Source: an uncultured Alphaproteobacteria bacterium (GTDB lineage: Bacteria > Pseudomonadota > Alphaproteobacteria > RF32 > CAG-239). Taken from it: 64,000 bases of DNA. The notes under the pieces were generated by a model. That model saw nothing but the letters and a program-made list of their open reading frames with translations. It had not been told where the DNA came from and did no database searches. This document shows, in pieces, positions 3,813-57,649 of the stretch. The position numbers and the translations under genes were made by a program. Position 1 is the first letter of the stretch; each line of letters opens with the position of its first letter. The stretch is taken from assembly GCA_944391505.1 (NCBI GenBank), contig CALXTV010000005.1, positions 5,033-69,032 on the forward strand, written 5' to 3'.

Positions 3813-4019
3813 TAGTTAAACTCTTCATAATTGTATTTAGCCAAAAACAAAGAGCCTCTCATTATATTTTGACTTATTATGAGAAGTAAGTTAACATATA
3901 TTTGATAGGTGTGATGTGAACAGCAATTGGCAGGTCTTATATCTGCTCTTTGCCGAAGTTTCTGCGCACCTCCGCCTTCGCAGGCGCCGTCCCTTATATT
4001 AACTTGTCCGAGGTGTGCC

Positions 4020-6323
4020 ATGGCTCGTGTTCATCTGTTCTTTTCTATCGTTTTGGCCAGCGGTGCTTTTTTTGCCGCGGCCGATGTTTCGGAGGCTGAA
4101 CAAAGCCTGCCGCTTACCTTGTCGGTTAATACACACACAAATACATTATCCACACCCCTGACGGCGTCTGCGTCTCTTTTTGCCGATTTGAAAAATTCTT
4201 ATCAGACTGTCGGCGTTTGCTTTATCGGTTTTGGCGATTGTATGGAAGATGCCGGTTTTGGCAGGGGCGGTGATGATTATTCGCTGGATACGGCCTCTCA
4301 ATGCAAAAACGAGGGATATGTTCTCAACAACTGCAATTCCGTTCAATCCCCCAAAGATTATTGCCCGTATAACAAGTCTTATGTTTCCGGATGTAAATGT
4401 GCGTCTAACCTTATAACCTGTCCGGCAGGGCAAGTCGGTGTGGGTGATGCCTGCGAGGGAAAGTACGCTTCCTGCAAATGCGACCCTAATCTTATAAGCT
4501 GCGCTTCCAACCAGACCGGACAGGGGGCAAGTTGCGGCGGCAAATATCAGTCCTGCGTCTGCAAGTCGGAATATCAATATAATTCATCAAACTGTACATC
4601 GCCGCGTTCGCTGACCGGTGCCAGCTGCGGCGGCAAGTATACGGGCTGCTCGTGTCCGGGAGGGATAACCAGTCTGCCTTACGGATGCGAGGAATATTAT
4701 GCGTCGCCCTGCAATTCCGTCTGTAAGAAAGCTTATGTGGACAACTGCAGGAATCGTACGGCGGTCAGTACACCGTACGGCTGCCAGACTTATTGGTCTG
4801 ACTGTTCTTCCAAATGTCAGAAGGCTTACCCGGACAACTGCCGGAATCGTACGGCCGCAACTTGTGCTTTTGGCTGTCAGACTTATTGGAGCGATTGTCA
4901 GTCGAAGTGCCAGACCTGCAAGACCGATAACTGTGCCAACCGAACCGCCGTTAATGCGCCATACGGTTGCCAGACTTATTGGTCAGACTGTGCTTCCAAG
5001 TGTCAGACGGCCTATGCCGACAACTGCCACAACCGTACGGCGGTCAGTACACCGTACGGCTGTCAGACTTATTGGTCTGATTGTACTTCCAAATGCCAGA
5101 CGGCTTATGCAGACAACTGTCGGAATCGTTATGTCAATAATGAGCAACAGGTGGCAATTTTCGGCTGTGCTAAGTATTTCGACGATTGTCCGACCAAATG
5201 TCAAATGCCTAATCCGACAAGCTGTACCTATGCCGCGCGAACGGCTCATCCGGAGGCCATTGTGGTCGGGACGAATGAAGAGCTCAGGACTGCGGCGGTT
5301 TCCGGAGAGAAAATTTACCTGAGCAGTGATTTAGATATATATACAAATTTTGAAATTAAAAACGGTACGGCAATCCATTCGGCCTATGAACTGGCGCCGA
5401 AATATTGTCTGGAAAAAGGATGGGGCGGTATATGGAATATTTATGAAGGAACCAAGATTAATGTTCCTTTATATAGTGCCGGGTTAGATGTTATGGGAAG
5501 TTTCAGTTTTTCAAAAGATATTAAGTTAAATTCTTTGTATTTTGGTGCACCGCCTTTGGGAATATCCGAAGAAACCGAAATTAGCATTACTTCTGAAAAT
5601 GATGCCAAAATTCAAAGTTATAACTTAGGTGGTTCGCTTGAGATTTTGAATGATTCGTTGAAGTCGATTTTTATTGATAATCTTGTCTGGGTCTCGACTT
5701 TGCGGCTTGATTTTATTTCAAACGAAGATCTGACGGTGACTGTGAGAAAATCTGGAGAATTTGATTCTCTTAATTTGAGTGGGGGACCGGGAAAGTTTGT
5801 TCTGGAAGACGGAACGTTTAATATTAGGGGTAATATGATTATTAACTCTATTCAGCCTCCTTATTTAGGCGACGGTATCGAAGTTTTGTTTAAAAATGCC
5901 AATGTTAATTTGCGTGACCTTGAGATGCAGTCAAATTCGGAAATCGTGCTGGATAATTCCACTGTTGATGCGAATAATAGCTTGGGAACTTATTTGGATT
6001 ATTCTAACCTTTTCTATGACAACTCTGTGCCGACGGGAGCAATCCGCTTTAAGAACGGCAGTAAATGGCTTAATATGTCCCATATTAGCATACACGACCT
6101 TTACGGCGGTGGATATGGCGTGGAGTTTGTTTTTGAACCGAACAGCCATTCTTATATTGAGACGTACAAAGGGTTTGGCACTTGTCAATACGGAAAGATA
6201 TCCGCTCAAGATCCGACGCAGGAAGCAAAATTGCAAAGTTACGGCGCTGCTACGACGGAGCTATGTTTCATACCTGATTATTATAATAATTATACCAAGC
6301 AAATTAATATAAAAGTAGAATAA
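4020..6323 (+). CDS. secreted cysteine-rich repeat protein (767 aa) with a Cys-free beta-rich C-terminal domain
   Basis: The in-frame ATG at 4020 begins a signal peptide, MARVHLFFSIVLASGAFFAAADVS. Residues 110-240 carry about 23-aa C.C..NLI.C...Q.G.G..C.GKY.SC repeats. Residues 240-400 carry five repeats of about 30 aa, NCRNRTAVSTPYGCQTYWSDCxSKCQxAY. The ~375-aa C-terminus is cysteine-free. I recognise no homolog by eye. Confidence 0.75.
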   Translation: MARVHLFFSIVLASGAFFAAADVSEAEQSLPLTLSVNTHTNTLSTPLTASASLFADLKNSYQTVGVCFIGFGDCMEDAGFGRGGDDYSLDTASQCKNEGYVLNNCNSVQSPKDYCPYNKSYVSGCKCASNLITCPAGQVGVGDACEGKYASCKCDPNLISCASNQTGQGASCGGKYQSCVCKSEYQYNSSNCTSPRSLTGASCGGKYTGCSCPGGITSLPYGCEEYYASPCNSVCKKAYVDNCRNRTAVSTPYGCQTYWSDCSSKCQKAYPDNCRNRTAATCAFGCQTYWSDCQSKCQTCKTDNCANRTAVNAPYGCQTYWSDCASKCQTAYADNCHNRTAVSTPYGCQTYWSDCTSKCQTAYADNCRNRYVNNEQQVAIFGCAKYFDDCPTKCQMPNPTSCTYAARTAHPEAIVVGTNEELRTAAVSGEKIYLSSDLDIYTNFEIKNGTAIHSAYELAPKYCLEKGWGGIWNIYEGTKINVPLYSAGLDVMGSFSFSKDIKLNSLYFGAPPLGISEETEISITSENDAKIQSYNLGGSLEILNDSLKSIFIDNLVWVSTLRLDFISNEDLTVTVRKSGEFDSLNLSGGPGKFVLEDGTFNIRGNMIINSIQPPYLGDGIEVLFKNANVNLRDLEMQSNSEIVLDNSTVDANNSLGTYLDYSNLFYDNSVPTGAIRFKNGSKWLNMSHISIHDLYGGGYGVEFVFEPNSHSYIETYKGFGTCQYGKISAQDPTQEAKLQSYGAATTELCFIPDYYNNYTKQINIKVE
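4731..5200 (+). repeat. intragenic tandem DNA repeat (about 90-bp unit, 5 copies) encoding the Cys-rich module
   Basis: Near-identical copies of gcttatg..gacaactgc.gaatcgtacggc...ccgtacggctgccagacttattggtctgactgt...aaatgtcaga. Confidence 0.8.
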
Positions 6324-50203: not shown

Positions 50204-50277
50204 TGCTTCATCGTCTAATGGTAGGACAGCGGACTCTGACTCCGTTAATCTTGGTTCGAATCCAGGTGAAGCAGCCA
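50204..50277 (+). tRNA. tRNA-Gln (anticodon CUG)
   Basis: TGCTTCATCGTCTAATGGTAGGACAGCGGACTCTGACTCCGT...GGTTCGAATCCAGGTGAAGCAGCCA. Confidence 0.8.
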
Positions 50278-50288
50278 ATAAAAAAACG

Positions 50289-50363
50289 CCCTCAACAGGG
50301 CGTTTTTTTATTGGCTGAAAAGCATTTGTTAAACGGCGAAGGCAGCGACAGCAACAGAGCCGT
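50289..50363 (+). repeat. 75-bp direct repeat, copy 1, containing a perfect palindromic terminator (ccaataaaaaaacgccctcaacagggcgtttttttattgg)
   Basis: Repeated at 50438-50512 with 2 mismatches; begins 12 bp after tRNA-Gln. Confidence 0.8.
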
Positions 50364-50437
50364 TGTTAAAAATGCTTTGACCGAAGCGCAGTTGTTGAGC
50401 GATGCAGTCGCGAAACTTACGGAGCAAGAGCCAATAT

Positions 50438-50512
50438 CCCTCAACAGGGCGTTTTTTTATTGGCTGAAAAGCATTTGTTAAACGGCGCAGGTAGCGACAG
50501 CAACAGAGCCGT
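50438..50512 (+). repeat. 75-bp direct repeat, copy 2
   Basis: See copy 1; the two copies are separated by a 74-bp spacer. Confidence 0.8.
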
Positions 50513-50686
50513 CGGTATTAATCAGAAAAAAATTTATGTCCGGAAAACCGCAGGAATCCTTTGTTTCAGGAAAGTATAACAAAAAAAATAAAAAATTATT
50601 TTTGCCTTAAGCGTTCCTTAAGTTCAGATTGTTGTACTGACCATGTAATAACGAACGACTTAACTTTTTATTTGAGGAGAAAAAAC

Positions 50687-53071: not shown

Positions 53072-54034
53072 TCAGGATCTGCTCAGGCGCCGGTTGCGGG
53101 AATAGTTTGTATACCATTCGTAGGTAAACAAGACGATGCCCGAAATAATCAGCGGAAAAAGGTAATATATGATACGATAGGCAATCAGGGCGCCGAAAAT
53201 CAGCGCCTGGTTGTGGTCTCCCGGAATGATGTAGAGGAACAGGCCTTCAAAAACACCCAGACCGCCCGGAACCTGACTGAAGACGCCGAGAACCTGAGCA
53301 ATGATGAAAACGCCGATGAAAACGTCAAAAGGAATGTCTAAAAAAGGTATCAGAGAATAGTAAAGGACCAGCGAGGCGAGCAAAATGTCGGCGCCGCCGA
53401 TGAAAACCTGAGCCAGAGCCATTTTGAAAGACGGAATTTTAAATTCGATGTCCTTGATGATGATTGATTTTTTATAAAACAGAGAAGCGCCGAAATATAT
53501 GAGCAGGCCGATTGCCGAAATGATGGTAACGGTCAGCGTGGTCAGGTGCGAAATCGAACCCTCGCCGAAAGCATGGTCGGGTGTCAGAAAGTAGCCGAGA
53601 ATAATCAGGAAAAAACAGGCAACCAGATAAGTGAAGCCGGAAAAGGTGACCATGCGGACGATTTCGGAAGCATGAAACCGCCAGCGGGTGTACAGCCGGT
53701 AACGAATTGCACCGCCGGAAACGATGGCGTGACCGGCATTGTTACTTACGGAAAAGCCGATAAAACCGGCAAAAATCCATTTCCAGGCCGCCAGCTTGCG
53801 GCCGATGTATTTTAGAGCCAGAAAGTCGTAAGAGGAAAGGGCGACATAACCGCCGAAAGAGGCCAGACAGGCAAGGAGCAGGTTGCGGTTCGGTATGCTG
53901 ACAAGCGCTTCCTTGATGTCTTCAAGCTTGTATTTGGAAAGTTGATGATAAATCATATAAGCGGCGACGGCAAAGAAAAACAGGCCGGACCAGGATACGA
54001 TTTTTTTCAGCAGTCTTTTGGTTTTGAATGCCAT
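53072..54034 (-). CDS. UPF0104 / lysylphosphatidylglycerol-synthase-TM-like membrane protein
   Basis: 320 aa with 7-8 TM helices. Confidence 0.55.
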   Translation of the reverse strand: MAFKTKRLLKKIVSWSGLFFFAVAAYMIYHQLSKYKLEDIKEALVSIPNRNLLLACLASFGGYVALSSYDFLALKYIGRKLAAWKWIFAGFIGFSVSNNAGHAIVSGGAIRYRLYTRWRFHASEIVRMVTFSGFTYLVACFFLIILGYFLTPDHAFGEGSISHLTTLTVTIISAIGLLIYFGASLFYKKSIIIKDIEFKIPSFKMALAQVFIGGADILLASLVLYYSLIPFLDIPFDVFIGVFIIAQVLGVFSQVPGGLGVFEGLFLYIIPGDHNQALIFGALIAYRIIYYLFPLIISGIVLFTYEWYTNYSRNRRLSRS

Positions 54035-54243
54035 AAAATTCCCTCATTTATAACTTCTCGTATATATTATTTCAATATGGTATAAAAATGTTTAAATATC
54101 AATTTAAATCGGGAAAATATTTTGCGGAATTTGTTAAACCCATATCGAATGATGCTCCTGACTAATTTTTACGTTTTATTATTTGTTTTAAATTAGATTT
54201 TTTGAGAAAGTAAGAACGCTACCCAAAAGAGAAAACGCGAAAT

Positions 54244-55212
54244 TTATTGTCTGGGAATATCTGTTGTTTTTTCTTTATTCAAATTATCTGTTTTATTTAT
54301 TATGTCTTTTAACGAGGGAGAAGCCCGAAGCCCTATAACTTCATTATAGCGTACACCATATTTATTTCGAATAGTTGTATCAGCCCCTGCTTTTATTAAC
54401 AATTTTACAGCTTCCTTATTGTTTGCCATTTCAGCAATAAATAATGGTGTATTTCCATCAAAATCAGGACTATTTATATCTGCACCTTTTGAGATTAAGT
54501 AATGAATTGGTTCAATGGTTAATTCGGAAGGAATTTCTACAGCATGATGTAAAGCTGTGCGTCCTCTAAGGGTATCTTTTTTGTTAATATCCGCACCATT
54601 TTCTACAAGAAGTTTCAACATATCCATAAGATATGGCACTGTCGTTTTTCTTACTTCCAGAAAAGCGTTATGCATTGTTGCTTTAACCGCAGATATTTCA
54701 TCTTTTGTAATATCTTTACAAGGCTTAGAAATAAGGTTAGGAATATTACAATATCCATTTTTTTGTAATTCTATATCAATTGCTTGATTCGATAATTCCT
54801 CATATCCTTGTAATTCTAAGGGCATAGCTAATACAACAACTAATGGAAATCTGGCGTTTCTCTGGCAAATTTCTTGATTAACGTCAGCTCCTTGAGCAAT
54901 TAAATATTTAATTTTTTCAATAGAATACTTTAAAGCATCTTGCCTCTGTTCTTGGATCCCCAAGATACTTCTAATAGCTAAAGTTAAAGGAGTGTTACAT
55001 TCATACATGGCATTTGCATCGGCTTGACTACGAATTAAGGCCTTCACATCATCAGGAGAACCAAATAAAATAGCAGACTGAATTTTGTCAGCAGTATGTG
55101 CTGTTTGTAATTCTACCGGAGGATTGGAAATTGATACTGATTGCTGTGCATTTATATTTGTCGATAAGCACAACATAACAACTGCTGATGCTAAGAGTTT
55201 TCTTGTATTCAT
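54244..55212 (-). CDS. secreted ankyrin-repeat protein
   Basis: Signal peptide and at least six ANK repeats (e.g. GRTALHHAVE, DGNTPLFIAEMANNKEAVKLLIKAGAD). The gene is markedly AT-rich compared with its flanks. Confidence 0.85.
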   Translation of the reverse strand: MNTRKLLASAVVMLCLSTNINAQQSVSISNPPVELQTAHTADKIQSAILFGSPDDVKALIRSQADANAMYECNTPLTLAIRSILGIQEQRQDALKYSIEKIKYLIAQGADVNQEICQRNARFPLVVVLAMPLELQGYEELSNQAIDIELQKNGYCNIPNLISKPCKDITKDEISAVKATMHNAFLEVRKTTVPYLMDMLKLLVENGADINKKDTLRGRTALHHAVEIPSELTIEPIHYLISKGADINSPDFDGNTPLFIAEMANNKEAVKLLIKAGADTTIRNKYGVRYNEVIGLRASPSLKDIINKTDNLNKEKTTDIPRQ

Positions 55213-55297
55213 GTTTATCTCCTAATAAAAGATATTTTAGTATTCTATAATGTTAATGGTTAAAATGATGTTTAGAAGATAAATTGGGAAAATTTCT

Positions 55298-55337
55298 ATC
55301 GGTTCGCGCCCGCTTGGGTTCAAGTCCCAAAAATTAA
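55298..55337 (+). other. tRNA-like 3' fragment (T-arm TTGGG-TTCAAGT-CCCAA) without an acceptor/CCA end
   Basis: Seen in the sequence between the ankyrin gene and tRNA-Thr. It may be an integration scar. Confidence 0.25.
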
Positions 55338-55373
55338 TACCATAAAAAAACTCCCCGCAGGGAGTTTTTTTTA

Positions 55374-55449
55374 TGGTGCCGACTGAGGGACTTGAACCCC
55401 CGACCCACTGATTACAAATCAGTAGCTCTACCAACTGAGCTAAGTCGGC
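55374..55449 (-). tRNA. tRNA-Thr (anticodon UGU)
   Basis: Reverse complement is GCCGACTTAGCTCAGTTGGTAGAGCTACTGATTTGTAATCAGTGGGTCGGGGGTTCAAGTCCCTCAGTCGGCACCA. Confidence 0.85.
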
Positions 55450-55500
55450 ATTAACTCGGTTTTTATAGCTTACGGGGGCATCAATGTCAATGATAAATTT

Positions 55501-56010
55501 TTAAAAACCAAATATACGGACGGCTTCTTTCATTTTGGCGCGCACAGCAACCTGAAACGGGCAACGTTTTTCGCAGAGCCCGCATTGGATACATTCAGAT
55601 GCGTGATGTTTTAATAACCTATAATGATTTTGCACGGTTTCCGGAACTTCGTTTTGTGCCAGAGCTTCGCCGGCTAACAACTCGTTGTTTAACGGCCCGT
55701 AAATTATGGCGGTATCAAAAAGCGTTACACCATGGTCTACGGCCTGATGAAGCAGGCGGATGCACTGTTTTTTGTCAGGATGGGCGCTGCGATTGTAAGT
55801 CATTCCCATAACGCCGAAACCCAAAGCGGAAACTTCCATGGCCGCGTTTCCTTTGCCAAGCGTTCTTTTTTGAGTCAGCAGCGGTGTGTCAATATCATCT
55901 TTTGCATTAACATATGCGTGAGATTTTTTTATTATCGGCGGCATAACGCTGATTGCAGCCAGTGCGGCCGCTGTTTTTAAAAAATTTCGTCTTCCCATTT
56001 TCAAAGTCAT
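55501..56010 (-). pseudogene. remnant of a Tat-exported aldo/keto reductase with a C-terminal Fe-S motif (internal deletion)
   Basis: Tat motif RRNFLK; residues 40-115 match the AKR N-terminus (GFGVMGM...LFDTAIIYGP..NELLAGEAL). The sequence then jumps to a C-terminal CIQCGLCEKRCP motif. The ORF is 169 aa, whereas this family is normally about 330-370 aa. Confidence 0.45.
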
Positions 56011-56104
56011 TTTGTTTTCCTCGAATTTTTATTTATGTAGATAATTTTAAATAAAAAATGAGAAAATATCTAATATTGTTTTTTTATAAAATGATAAATT
56101 TTAT

Positions 56105-56998
56105 TTATGCTTTCGGGTTGTCCGTGCCGAGAAGCATAAGTGCGTTGTCCTGCAGCCAGCGGATTATTCCGCCGAGACGTTTTTTATCGGTTTGGGAAAA
56201 TGAAAACCAGTAAAGAGCCGAGATACCTTCATCTTCCAGCGGAACGGCAATCCGTTCGCCATCGTTGCGATATTGCTGTACCAGACGGGTGGTAAAGCTC
56301 AGAACCTTTTTGTGTTCCAGCATCTGCCGAAAAACGAAATAGTCGGTATAAATGGTTACGGACGGCAGAGTTTCGAGCCAATCAAGAAATTTGTGAATTT
56401 CCCGCTCGTAAGCGCCGTAAATGCGATAAGCCGCTATTTTGCGTTCGGTGTAGTGGTGCAGACAGACGGCAGGCTTATCCGCCAAGGGATCGTCTTTGGC
56501 TACGGAAAGCATCAGTTCTTCCTTGGCAAAAGGTATGCTGACAATGTTCTGATGTTCCAGTTTTTTTAGGGTGATGACGGCGTCATATTTTTTTGACAGC
56601 AGATTGTTCAGGGCATCTGCGCCATCGGCCAGAATTTCCGATGTCAGTTCTAGTTCCGGATATGTTTTTTGGAGCATCGGCACCGAGAAACGCATCGGTC
56701 CGGGGTCGCAAAAGCCGAGGGAAATTGTTTTGTTGTTTTGAGCATAAATCCGGAAAGCGTTTTTCATTTCTTCCGCACGTCCGATAACGGCGCAGGCGTG
56801 CGTCAGTGCCAGTTGTCCGGCCTGATTGAGGATAAGGTGGTTTTTTTGGCGCTCAAAAAGCCGGACGCCGAGTTCCGTTTCCAGATTTTTCAGAGAGGAA
56901 CTTAATGCCGGCTGCGAAATATGCAGACGTTCGGCAGCCTCGCGCATGGTTTTGCTTTCGGCGATGGTTTTAAATTGCAGCAGTTGGGTCAGTTCCAT
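56105..56998 (-). CDS. LysR-family transcriptional regulator
   Basis: N-terminal HTH (LHISQPALSSSLKNLETELGVRLFER) and a LysR substrate-binding domain. Confidence 0.85.
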   Translation of the reverse strand: MELTQLLQFKTIAESKTMREAAERLHISQPALSSSLKNLETELGVRLFERQKNHLILNQAGQLALTHACAVIGRAEEMKNAFRIYAQNNKTISLGFCDPGPMRFSVPMLQKTYPELELTSEILADGADALNNLLSKKYDAVITLKKLEHQNIVSIPFAKEELMLSVAKDDPLADKPAVCLHHYTERKIAAYRIYGAYEREIHKFLDWLETLPSVTIYTDYFVFRQMLEHKKVLSFTTRLVQQYRNDGERIAVPLEDEGISALYWFSFSQTDKKRLGGIIRWLQDNALMLLGTDNPKA

Positions 56999-57157
56999 AA
57001 TAAATTGCTATAAATAAAATTTATTGTTCTATAAAAAACAATATTAGACTTCGGCAGGGGAGTCAAGCAGAATGAAGGCAGCTTTCTTTCCTTGATGTTT
57101 TGTTTTCTGCTTGTGGTAACATATCAAATTGCCGTCGGAAGGTGTTTTGTCTGCCGG

Positions 57158-57649
57158 TCAGTCTTCGCCACCGAAAAAGGCGTTTATCTGATATTGCAGG
57201 TTTTCCGAGAAGCTGACCGGATCGGACGCTTCGTTCTGGAGATTTTCCAGTTTTTTGTAACCGATGCTTTGTCCGTCGGCAACATCGACCAGAACGACTT
57301 CCAACGGCTGGTTTAAGTCATAAGTCTCGATGAAGTTGTATTCGTCATCGTTCTGGTAATTGATTAAAAACAGGCTGTATTCGTCCTGATAGTTTTGGTT
57401 GTAAACCTGTTCAATCAGCTCAATGGTCTGCGGGCATTGAAAACAGGGATTGTTATTGAAGAAAACATAAATTATCGGTTTGTCGTAGTTTTGATAAGCT
57501 TCGTTGAAATATTCCTGCAGATTCTGGTTCGGGTTATAGGCGCCTTCGTAAGTCAGTTCGGCGCGCAGGGGAAGCGCCAGCGCAACCATAATCATAAAAG
57601 CCCACAGCAGTTTTATCATCTTTTTTCTCCGCTTGATGTTGAATATCAC
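57158..57649 (-). CDS. secreted thioredoxin-like protein (CFQC)
   Basis: Signal peptide; IYVFFNNNPCFQCPQTIELIEQV resembles a thioredoxin-fold CxxC site. Confidence 0.4.
   Translation of the reverse strand: MIFNIKRRKKMIKLLWAFMIMVALALPLRAELTYEGAYNPNQNLQEYFNEAYQNYDKPIIYVFFNNNPCFQCPQTIELIEQVYNQNYQDEYSLFLINYQNDDEYNFIETYDLNQPLEVVLVDVADGQSIGYKKLENLQNEASDPVSFSENLQYQINAFFGGED

Follow-up and report, generated by a model that had tools for sequence, protein, structure and literature searches.

The ankyrin-repeat gene and its surroundings

The gene considered here encodes an ankyrin-repeat (ANK) protein and lies intact on the minus strand between a gene for tRNA-Thr(UGU) and a gene for a membrane protein of the LPG_synthase_TM family, within a 64-kb stretch of contig CALXTV010000005.1 which was analysed as a whole and is referred to throughout as the window (overall GC content 0.466). 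Orthologs of the LPG_synthase_TM-family gene with 74-94% identity are found in 80 metagenome-assembled genomes (MAGs) labelled as uncultured gut Alphaproteobacteria, 'Azospirillum sp. 51_20' or Candidatus Scatocola, a genus assigned to the Rhodospirillales, and the host of the window is an uncultured gut alphaproteobacterium near Candidatus Scatocola. Contigs and genomes used for comparison carry L numbers and loci of more distant ANK homologs P numbers; by amino acid identity of the LPG-synthase product the closest genomes are L011 (94%), L014 (92%) and L017 (88%). The exact ANK protein of the window is present on 22 metagenome contigs. Coordinates of the features are collected in Table 1.

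Table 1 Features at the tRNA-Thr/ANK locus of the window (aa, amino acids; nt, nucleotides; ORF, open reading frame)
Feature	Position	Strand	Description or basis
LPG_synthase_TM-family membrane protein gene	53072..54034	minus	Pfam; conserved distal anchor of the variable interval
Right junction copy ATTTTCCCGATTTA	54105..54118	minus	Lone copy also in ANK-less L011 and L014
ANK cassette, 1154 bp, AT-rich	54139..55292		ANK ORF with 80 nt upstream and 105 nt downstream; absent from L011
ANK ORF	54244..55212	minus	Intact, 322 aa; Pfam Ank, Ank_2, Ank_4; predicted exported all-ankyrin-repeat protein
Three canonical ankyrin repeats, residues 197-286	54355..54624	minus	Pfam Ank_2 197-283, Ank 252-284
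Sec-type signal peptide MNTRKLLASAVVMLCLSTNINA, codons 1-22	55147..55212	minus	Cleavage after INA predicted by eye
Shine-Dalgarno AGGAG of ANK	55223-55219	minus	Pattern match only
Promoter-like hexamers TTAACC, 18 nt, TAAAAT	55263-55234	minus	Consensus scan; pattern match only
Left junction copy ATTTTCCCAATTTA of imperfect direct repeat	55280..55293	minus	13/14 match to 54105-54118
X, first part of the ~200-bp unit	55293..55338	minus	Holds the 13-mer; decayed inverted copy of the tRNA-Thr 3' half
Bidirectional intrinsic-terminator palindrome ACCAT-A7-CTCCC..GGGAG-T7-ATGGT	55339..55377		Overlaps the ACCA end of the tRNA
tRNA-Thr(UGU), intact, CCA encoded	55374..55449	minus	ARAGORN; Rfam 73 bits
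Aldo/keto reductase (AKR)-ferredoxin gene, internally deleted, 169 aa	55501..56010	minus	5' side of tRNA-Thr

A first-pass annotation, made from the sequence without database searches, had described an AT-rich ankyrin-repeat gene with a Sec signal peptide next to an intact tRNA-Thr, and on each of these points our analysis agrees with it. The ankyrin assignment follows from Pfam profiles scoring above their curated cut-offs (Ank, E-value 3.4e-21, 74.6 bits; Ank_2, 1.8e-20, 73.7 bits) together with a helical solenoid in the structural model, and the signal peptide from its layout and a near-invariant alanine, as set out below. The ORF has a GC content of ~0.32-0.33, and its GC at third codon positions (GC3) is 0.204 against a mean of 0.537 (standard deviation 0.073) for the 48 long ORFs of the window, the most extreme value among them (z = -4.6); the interval 54001-55000 is the lowest-GC 1-kb bin of the window (GC 0.31). 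Rather than being one of many ankyrin genes native to this genome in composition, the finding that would speak against foreign origin, it is a compositional outlier and single-copy in the window, where tblastn detected no paralog.

The arrangement itself differs from that first description, which had the gene lying between a fragment resembling a tRNA T arm and tRNA-Thr. Both precede the start codon on the 5' side of the gene, the order on the minus strand being tRNA-Thr, terminator, a 46-nt piece (55338-55293), an 80-nt AT-rich leader and the ANK ORF. The gene is indeed more AT-rich than the two-component and LysR genes that had been named as flanking it, but its direct neighbours are the LPG_synthase_TM-type gene and the AKR remnant, and the two-component and LysR genes come only after these.

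The 46-nt piece, here called X, is the sequence that had been likened to the 3' half of a tRNA. Part of this likeness is real, as the 13 nt of GGGTTCAAGTCCC (55316-55328) match the reverse complement of the tRNA-Thr T arm (55387-55399) perfectly, with a score reached in 1/1000 shuffles; but the piece is inverted relative to tRNA-Thr, ARAGORN makes no tRNA call on it and the Rfam tRNA model gives no match at E<=10 in a 371-nt search. Other Rfam families at E<=10 gave only terminator-like chance matches and a 10-bit match to the T arm of transfer-messenger RNA (tmRNA), and tRNA-Gln (50204-50277), whose T arm GGTTCGAATCC is mismatched, was rejected as an intact counterpart of the fragment. The stem of the terminator between X and tRNA-Thr shows compensatory changes between species.

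A horizontally acquired one-gene cassette

Comparison with related genomes shows that 54139-55292 is a horizontally acquired one-gene cassette within the interval from tRNA-Thr to the LPG-synthase gene. Its limits are the points at which homology to L011 ends (55293) and restarts (54138). Besides a nested antisense ORF, ANK is the only ORF of at least 50 aa lying wholly inside these limits, a short spurious ORF (55237-55434) overlapping the edge of the cassette and the tRNA. No ANK gene was found by tblastn in L011, L014 or L017. Over 4.85 kb contig L095 shares 97.1% identity with L011, and the two therefore represent strains of one species; the cassette is present in L095 at the place where L011 has two copies of a ~200-bp repeat unit described below.

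Synonymous divergence (dS) and the ratio of nonsynonymous to synonymous divergence (dN/dS) were compared between the window and L095 for ANK and genes of its flanks. For ANK the dS is 0.27 (dN/dS 0.21), whereas it is 0.76 (0.04) for the LPG-synthase gene, 0.69 (0.03) for the response-regulator gene and 1.17 (0.08) for the histidine-kinase gene, and the low value for ANK therefore indicates recent horizontal transfer after the split of the two species. Over three pairs (window-L095, window-L091 and L095-L091) the dN/dS of ANK is 0.21-0.30, from which it follows that the gene is functional. A 91%-identical copy consisting of the ORF and 51 nt upstream occurs in L091-L094 in an unrelated AT-rich context, beside a convergent ANK paralog. 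The junction between X and the cassette is common to the window, L095, L112, L119, L120 and L008-L010, the cassette standing at the same junctions in at least two species, and a single founding event is suggested because this junction is identical wherever the cassette occupies this site.

A metagenome scan using the cassette's own upstream sequence added only two contigs, each again with the tRNA-Thr/LPG-synthase arrangement, and brought up no donor locus. The idea that the region upstream of ANK is a diverged duplicate of the LPG-synthase promoter was discarded, the similarity in the alignment being confined to the 14-nt junction repeat. One contig, L117 (629-2276), carries a 5'-truncated ANK of which the 3' 60% is left, matching the window from 54827 downward, with the lost 5' 40% replaced by DNA for a 326-aa multi-pass membrane protein.

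The tRNA-Thr gene as an integration hotspot

In this clade tRNA-Thr(UGU) is the attachment site (attB) of prophages and islands. In many of the MAGs with an ortholog of the LPG-synthase gene it is found a short way upstream of that gene, and the interval between the two is hypervariable, ranging from 147 bp to 4.3 kb across species. Elsewhere its cargo includes a Fic/DOC protein, a membrane-anchored TPR protein and a dehydrogenase-like gene, and in L027 it holds an ANK homolog of 41% identity and, after it, an ORF like the N-terminus of giant RTX proteins. A P4-type integrase of 390 aa with Phage_integrase and Arm-DNA-bind_3 domains stands beside tRNA-Thr in L103 and L018. Islands ending in 47-nt copies of the tRNA-Thr 3' part were found in L008-L010, L013, L036 and L104, the last being a prophage contig from IMG/VR that ends in the same junction and carries a tail-fibre gene and an Eco57I-type methylase. 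In L008-L010, whose ANK protein is identical to that of the window, AT-rich DNA is followed by a 47-nt copy of the tRNA-Thr 3' half, then by the repeat units and then by ANK; in prophage-bearing strains the ANK gene thus sits outside the right attachment site (attR) of the prophage, which adjoins the repeat units.

Several of these arrangements are more complex. In L103 (1-3556) and L018 (7993-9770) tRNA-Thr is followed immediately on its 3' side by the integrase, and close by are repeats of the motif GGTAGCTC, possibly sites of the arm type. L103 also has an inverted 46-nt copy of the tRNA-Thr 3' end together with repeat units 1.7 kb off on the other strand, and L018 an additional copy of the 5' 40 nt of tRNA-Thr; these rearrangements may reflect inversions or nested integrations. 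L036 (6043-8115) carries a 2-kb islet with a single 489-aa Fic/DOC-family gene between tRNA-Thr and a 56-nt repeat, which consists of the tRNA-Thr 3' part and the first downstream nucleotides.

The 5' side of tRNA-Thr is variable too, because an ortholog of the 163-aa gene found there lies next to the tRNA in L014, the AKR remnant is restricted to one species and the LysR gene has only a distant match. In the window the LysR gene and the AKR remnant (55450-57157) sit between the 163-aa gene (57158-57649) and tRNA-Thr, and in L014 the ortholog of the 163-aa gene is just 72 nt from the tRNA. For the LysR gene tblastn elsewhere gives only a distant 27% match (L025). The AKR remnant encodes a product with a TAT signal, positions 2-60 only of the 291 of the AKR profile and a C-terminal Fer4/4Fe-4S motif (Pfam); it has tblastn matches in the window species alone, and the same form is found on all contigs of that species covering the region.

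The cassette is an ordinary accessory-gene islet at a tRNA hotspot, and both this kind of islet and exported bacterial ankyrin proteins are already known. Tandem accretion and decayed elements have been described at tRNA and tmRNA attachment sites, for example in the ssrA islands of Dehalococcoides (PMC3146451), and cis-mobilizable elements have been reviewed (PMC5704250). As in such tRNA-linked islets and hotspots, the locus has cargo of foreign composition 3' of a tRNA used by integrase-bearing elements, tandem att-type repeats, integrase-less remnants and presence/absence polymorphism beside the attB tRNA. Unlike them, the ANK cassette has neither an integrase nor flanking tRNA-derived direct repeats, and its apparent movement is by homologous recombination.

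The ANK protein and its RTX-linked relatives

The N-terminus of the protein, MNTRKLLASAVVMLCLSTNINA followed by QQ, shows by eye the n/h/c regions of a Sec leader, and a hydrophobic N-terminus ending in xAQ is common to the family, with A22 nearly invariant in the alignment. In a 15-sequence alignment C72, C116, C155 and C165 are invariant or near-invariant and the motif ISKPCKDIT is conserved. The last ~20 residues are unconserved and contain no RTX repeats, so that a C-terminal type IV or type I secretion motif, for which the first-pass annotation had recommended a check, was not recognised there, although the tools cannot exclude such signals rigorously. In an AlphaFold2 model (predicted local distance difference test score, pLDDT, 83.6; predicted template modelling score 0.78) residues 37-300 form an ankyrin solenoid, and the C155-C165 loop bears a small β-hairpin, residues 1-36 being of low confidence (pLDDT below 50). 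Foldseek matched the model to designed ankyrin repeat proteins (DARPins) and ankyrins with probability 1.00, and PDB profile matches fall at ~186-277 of the alignment profile; a specific structural relative did not emerge from either search, both giving generic ANK/DARPin matches only.

From the Sec leader and the four conserved cysteines we infer that the protein works in the periplasm and is not a host-translocated effector, as the same two features disfavour one-step export by a type I or type IV system. The product would then be exported by Sec and disulfide-bonded, acting as a periplasmic binding protein without a catalytic domain. The proposal that it is a secreted effector of an intracellular or symbiotic lineage is thus not sustained: it has a Sec-type leader, four cysteines, an unconserved C-terminus and relatives linked to RTX and type I secretion genes, there are no secretion genes in the window, and the host is known from gut MAGs.

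Sec-dependent ankyrin proteins acting in the periplasm or cell envelope include RARP-1 of Rickettsia and AnkB of Pseudomonas aeruginosa, which the protein resembles in being an ankyrin-repeat protein with an N-terminal export signal, the genomic contexts being different. Ankyrin effectors secreted by type I or type IV systems are known from Rickettsiales and Legionella (e.g. PMC3417381, PMC4315096); they too are bacterial ankyrin-repeat proteins and horizontally mobile, but they lack a Sec leader, carry C-terminal signals and belong to obligate or facultative intracellular bacteria, whereas the present protein has a leader and conserved cysteines and comes from a gut-lumen MAG lineage. The Tli protein of Enterobacter cloacae is a signal-sequence-bearing six-ankyrin-repeat periplasmic immunity protein of a type VI secretion system (T6SS) phospholipase, Tle (PMC11470151). 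An export signal, here predicted, and a pure ANK solenoid without a catalytic domain are common to Tli and our protein, and both families are encoded next to a secreted toxin-type protein. The relation in sequence and fold is only the generic one of ankyrin proteins, however, the neighbours are type I secretion and giant RTX genes instead of T6SS lipases, and the copy in the window is an orphan.

The genomic context of more distant relatives was surveyed in eight homolog loci with readable surroundings (35-59% identity; P0009, P0015, P0019, P0030, P0033, P0036, the L027 copy and L118). In all eight the ANK homolog is directly beside a gene for a giant RTX/SPM-type protein, the products ranging from 374 aa to >4500 aa and the genes bearing the precomputed tags PF26745 'SPM', HemolysinCabind and HCBP_related. 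A C39-type ABC transporter and an HlyD-family gene are visible in five of these loci, and several RTX-linked loci have 2-3 ANK paralogs. In the RTX proteins in question the ~190 N-terminal residues include glycine-zipper-like GxxxG motifs, after which comes PLVIDLDGDG, a motif of the self-processing type. In L096 (7015-12483) a giant RTX gene beside an ANK homolog encodes, within its first ~200 codons, a Gly/Ala-rich N-terminus with consecutive GxxxG motifs and then SPLVIDLDGDGIE, which may form a releasable membrane-active module; small upstream ORFs in L096 bear the same 'SPM' tag.

Origin of the cassette and possible role of its product

The explanation that we favour, and regard as fairly probable taken as a whole, is that an acquired cassette was spread by recombination and encodes an orphan periplasmic binder of RTX-type proteins. 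One founding insertion would have brought the gene to this site, perhaps in an illegitimate event of which the 14-nt junction repeat is the mark, and its spread thereafter would have proceeded by homologous recombination through the flanks, that is the tRNA with its repeat unit on one side and the LPG-synthase gene on the other. A number of observations temper this account. Spread by homologous recombination is deduced from the shared junctions and the dS values, and the 14-nt repeat exceeds chance only to a moderate degree. In every host the genes of the ANK family have a low GC content (0.31-0.35), even beside secretion genes of ~0.50 GC, and this low GC may in part be a family trait and not a simple donor signature. 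The cleavage of the signal peptide was judged by eye. No RTX or type I secretion gene was found in the 64-kb window, and any RTX partner would be elsewhere in the genome or in competitors; an immunity role, moreover, draws on gene neighbourhood and analogy, and immunity genes usually follow the toxin gene whereas ANK precedes the RTX gene here.

Site-specific integration at a tRNA followed by decay of the mobile element had been proposed for this locus, with ANK as former cargo, the tRNA fragment as a scar and a eukaryote-directed effector as the product. Part of this holds, in that a gene of strongly deviating composition does lie on the 3' side of a tRNA whose use as attB is proven in the clade; integrase-less remnants of island arms exist in other species (L014 and L013), and the cassette starts exactly where X ends, the position expected of cargo were X the arm of an element. 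The fragment, however, is inverted and on the tRNA side of ANK, where an attachment scar would be a direct repeat, and it belongs to a separate tandem unit that also occurs in genomes without ANK. A copy of the 3' end of tRNA-Thr distal to ANK was sought with its last 25 nt in the interval up to the LPG-synthase gene, and nothing significant was found in the window (1834/2000 shuffles were as good) or in L095 (a 7-mer only, equalled by 185/2000 shuffles); candidates for such a scar picked by eye (AGTCAGGAGCATCA, and TCAGGGGCACCA in L095) are not above chance. The degraded integrase that might have been expected nearby was not detected in the window either, where the best tblastn match of the L103 integrase has an E-value of 0.66 and lies elsewhere. 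ANK is outside the prophage attR, and a relative was found in just 1 of 2.9 million viral contigs, again beside giant ORFs, so that carriage as a phage 'moron' was likewise set aside, the tRNA-Thr prophage stopping before ANK. With the leader, cysteines and variable C-terminus speaking against the effector part, we judge the decayed island improbable; a tRNA-like fragment beside an AT-rich gene is by itself no proof of one.

Transposition-like or illegitimate insertion upstream of the LPG-synthase gene, with duplication of a ~14-nt target ATTTTCCCRATTTA and a later deletion joining the cassette to the repeat unit, has in its favour that the 13/14 direct repeat stands exactly at both junctions and that ANK-less genomes have the single right-hand copy. 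The repeat is of modest significance, though, its score being reached in 21/5000 shuffles and by 1.1% of control in-block window pairs; an additional deletion is required for the left copy to abut X, transposase and terminal inverted repeats are not present, and the L091 copy shares the ORF and 51 nt upstream only, without the repeat. We therefore consider this course of events unlikely. Vertical inheritance of an ancestral ANK gene with loss in relatives would be compatible with the AT-richness of the family in all hosts examined, then a family property, and with the purifying selection on the gene, but it is contradicted by a dS of about one third that of flanking genes between two species, by presence and absence of ANK within one species, by the 91%-identical copy at an unrelated locus and by the GC3 value, and we give it hardly any weight.

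As to the role of the acquired gene, every more distant homolog examined adjoins a giant RTX gene, and for this reason the window protein is read as an orphan partner or periplasmic binder of giant RTX-type proteins. What such a partner might do is a matter for tentative suggestion. An immunity-type, neutralising role, proposed by analogy, appears to be the most likely one, although in absolute terms we think it rather doubtful. In its broader form, which we advance with reserve, a family of ~300-aa Sec-exported, disulfide-bonded ankyrin proteins would serve as periplasmic immunity or neutralising partners of a class of giant RTX proteins that gut Alphaproteobacteria secrete by the type I route, with orphan copies protecting against the RTX bacteriocins of competitors and the tRNA-Thr hotspot acting as a landing pad. 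A less likely function, to which we likewise assign a low probability, is that of a handling or retention partner in the periplasm for the N-terminal domain of a type I-secreted giant RTX adhesin, or of a general scaffold like Pseudomonas AnkB. LapA-type adhesins keep their N-terminus in the periplasm, and in all cases ANK lies directly upstream of the gene whose product begins with the conserved RTX N-terminal domain, mostly in the same orientation, as would suit such handling; the spread of orphan genes between species without an RTX gene suits a protective role better, and the tandem arrays of 2-3 ANK paralogs resemble immunity-gene arrays. In either case an exported ankyrin family tied to giant RTX loci in abundant uncultured gut Alphaproteobacteria is a possible new toxin-immunity or adhesin-handling pair.

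Tandem repeat units behind tRNA genes

The ~200-bp unit to which X belongs consists of the terminator, X with GGGACTTGAACCC, a part Y with hairpins and, directly repeated, the last 19-20 nt of tRNA-Thr, this terminal repeat agreeing in each case with the genome's own tRNA-Thr. It follows directly after the tRNA in L011, L014, L032, L037, L042 and L008-L010, is 199-202 bp long behind tRNA-Thr in the window lineage, and occurs with or without ANK. Related strains and species have 0.4-2.5 copies: 2.5 in L008 (period 199, 99% identity), 2 in L011, 2 or more in L042, 1.4 in L009, L010, L112 and L119, and 0.4, that is terminator and X only, in L095, L120 and the window, where the ANK cassette truncates the unit. 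The unit hardly changes between species whose core genes differ by 12-28%.

X, which alignment shows to be a decayed inverted copy of the tRNA-Thr 3' half, is more complete in some relatives. Its alignment in L022 extends over 30 nt of the resident tRNA-Thr, covering variable loop, T arm and acceptor strand (0/1000 shuffles), and that in L019, L024 and L027 over 13-22 nt (<=1/1000 shuffles reach the score); at loci without the unit nothing comparable in the way of inverted tRNA-Thr 3' similarity was seen. The sequence of X is unchanged in L014 while the T arm of the tRNA differs, and X is therefore not kept for pairing with the tRNA. L014 has a single unit with the 19-nt repeat placed before a terminator that directly abuts the tRNA in L053 and L065, so that its unit looks like a discrete insertion, and the sequence downstream of it resembles the integrase-proximal arm of the element in L103 and L018. 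Neither an excision product nor a cognate integrase was identified for the unit, the prophage arm motifs GGTAGCTC are absent from it, and it matches no Rfam family. A structured RNA was considered, and RNAalifold drew hairpins on both strands, but beyond the terminator there was hardly any covariation (terms of +0.47 and -0.28 kcal/mol), the sequences being too alike to decide.

A second array lies behind tRNA-Gln, at 50278-50520 of the window, with a 149-bp unit in ~1.5 copies which contains GCCAAT, taken from the end of the tRNA, together with a palindromic terminator and a hairpin-bearing stretch of ~110 nt. The corresponding array has 2.5 copies at 99% identity in L002 (11783-12155) and ~0.5 in L004 as judged from gene spacing. 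Each of the window's three tRNA genes is followed by a terminator in the form of a long palindrome (29783-29826, 50271-50318 and 55339-55377), whose outer arms contain the tRNA's own 3' end (ACCAT...ATGGT or GCCAAT...ATTGGC).

The unit of the window lineage has the properties of a tRNA-distal tandem repeat of the tyrT type. In Escherichia coli the tyrT-tyrV region (annotated as rttR/tpr) contains 3.1 copies of a 178-bp unit, each with the last 19 nt of tRNA-Tyr, as we verified on NC_000913. In both cases a tRNA gene is followed immediately on its 3' side by tandem units of comparable length, each holding the terminal ~19 nt of the tRNA including CCA. Those of the window lineage differ in starting with a bidirectional intrinsic terminator and in carrying an inverted pseudo-tRNA half; they have no sequence similarity to the E. 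coli unit, and the single unit of L014 behaves as a discrete insertion would. Tandem units of ~150-200 bp built on a tRNA 3' end, a curiosity of E. coli tyrT, thus recur at two tRNAs in an unrelated lineage, and copy-number variation between strains together with the insertion-like unit of L014 provides a comparative handle on the origin of such repeats.

Other features of the window

The second most AT-rich long ORF of the window (28225-29712, plus strand, 495 aa, GC3 0.389) also adjoins a tRNA gene, tRNA-Leu (29820-29905); neither it nor the preceding 425-aa ORF (26918-28195) has a Pfam match. A 93-nt tandem repeat in 4.1 copies (69% identity) is located at 4740-5119 within a 798-aa ORF (3927-6323).

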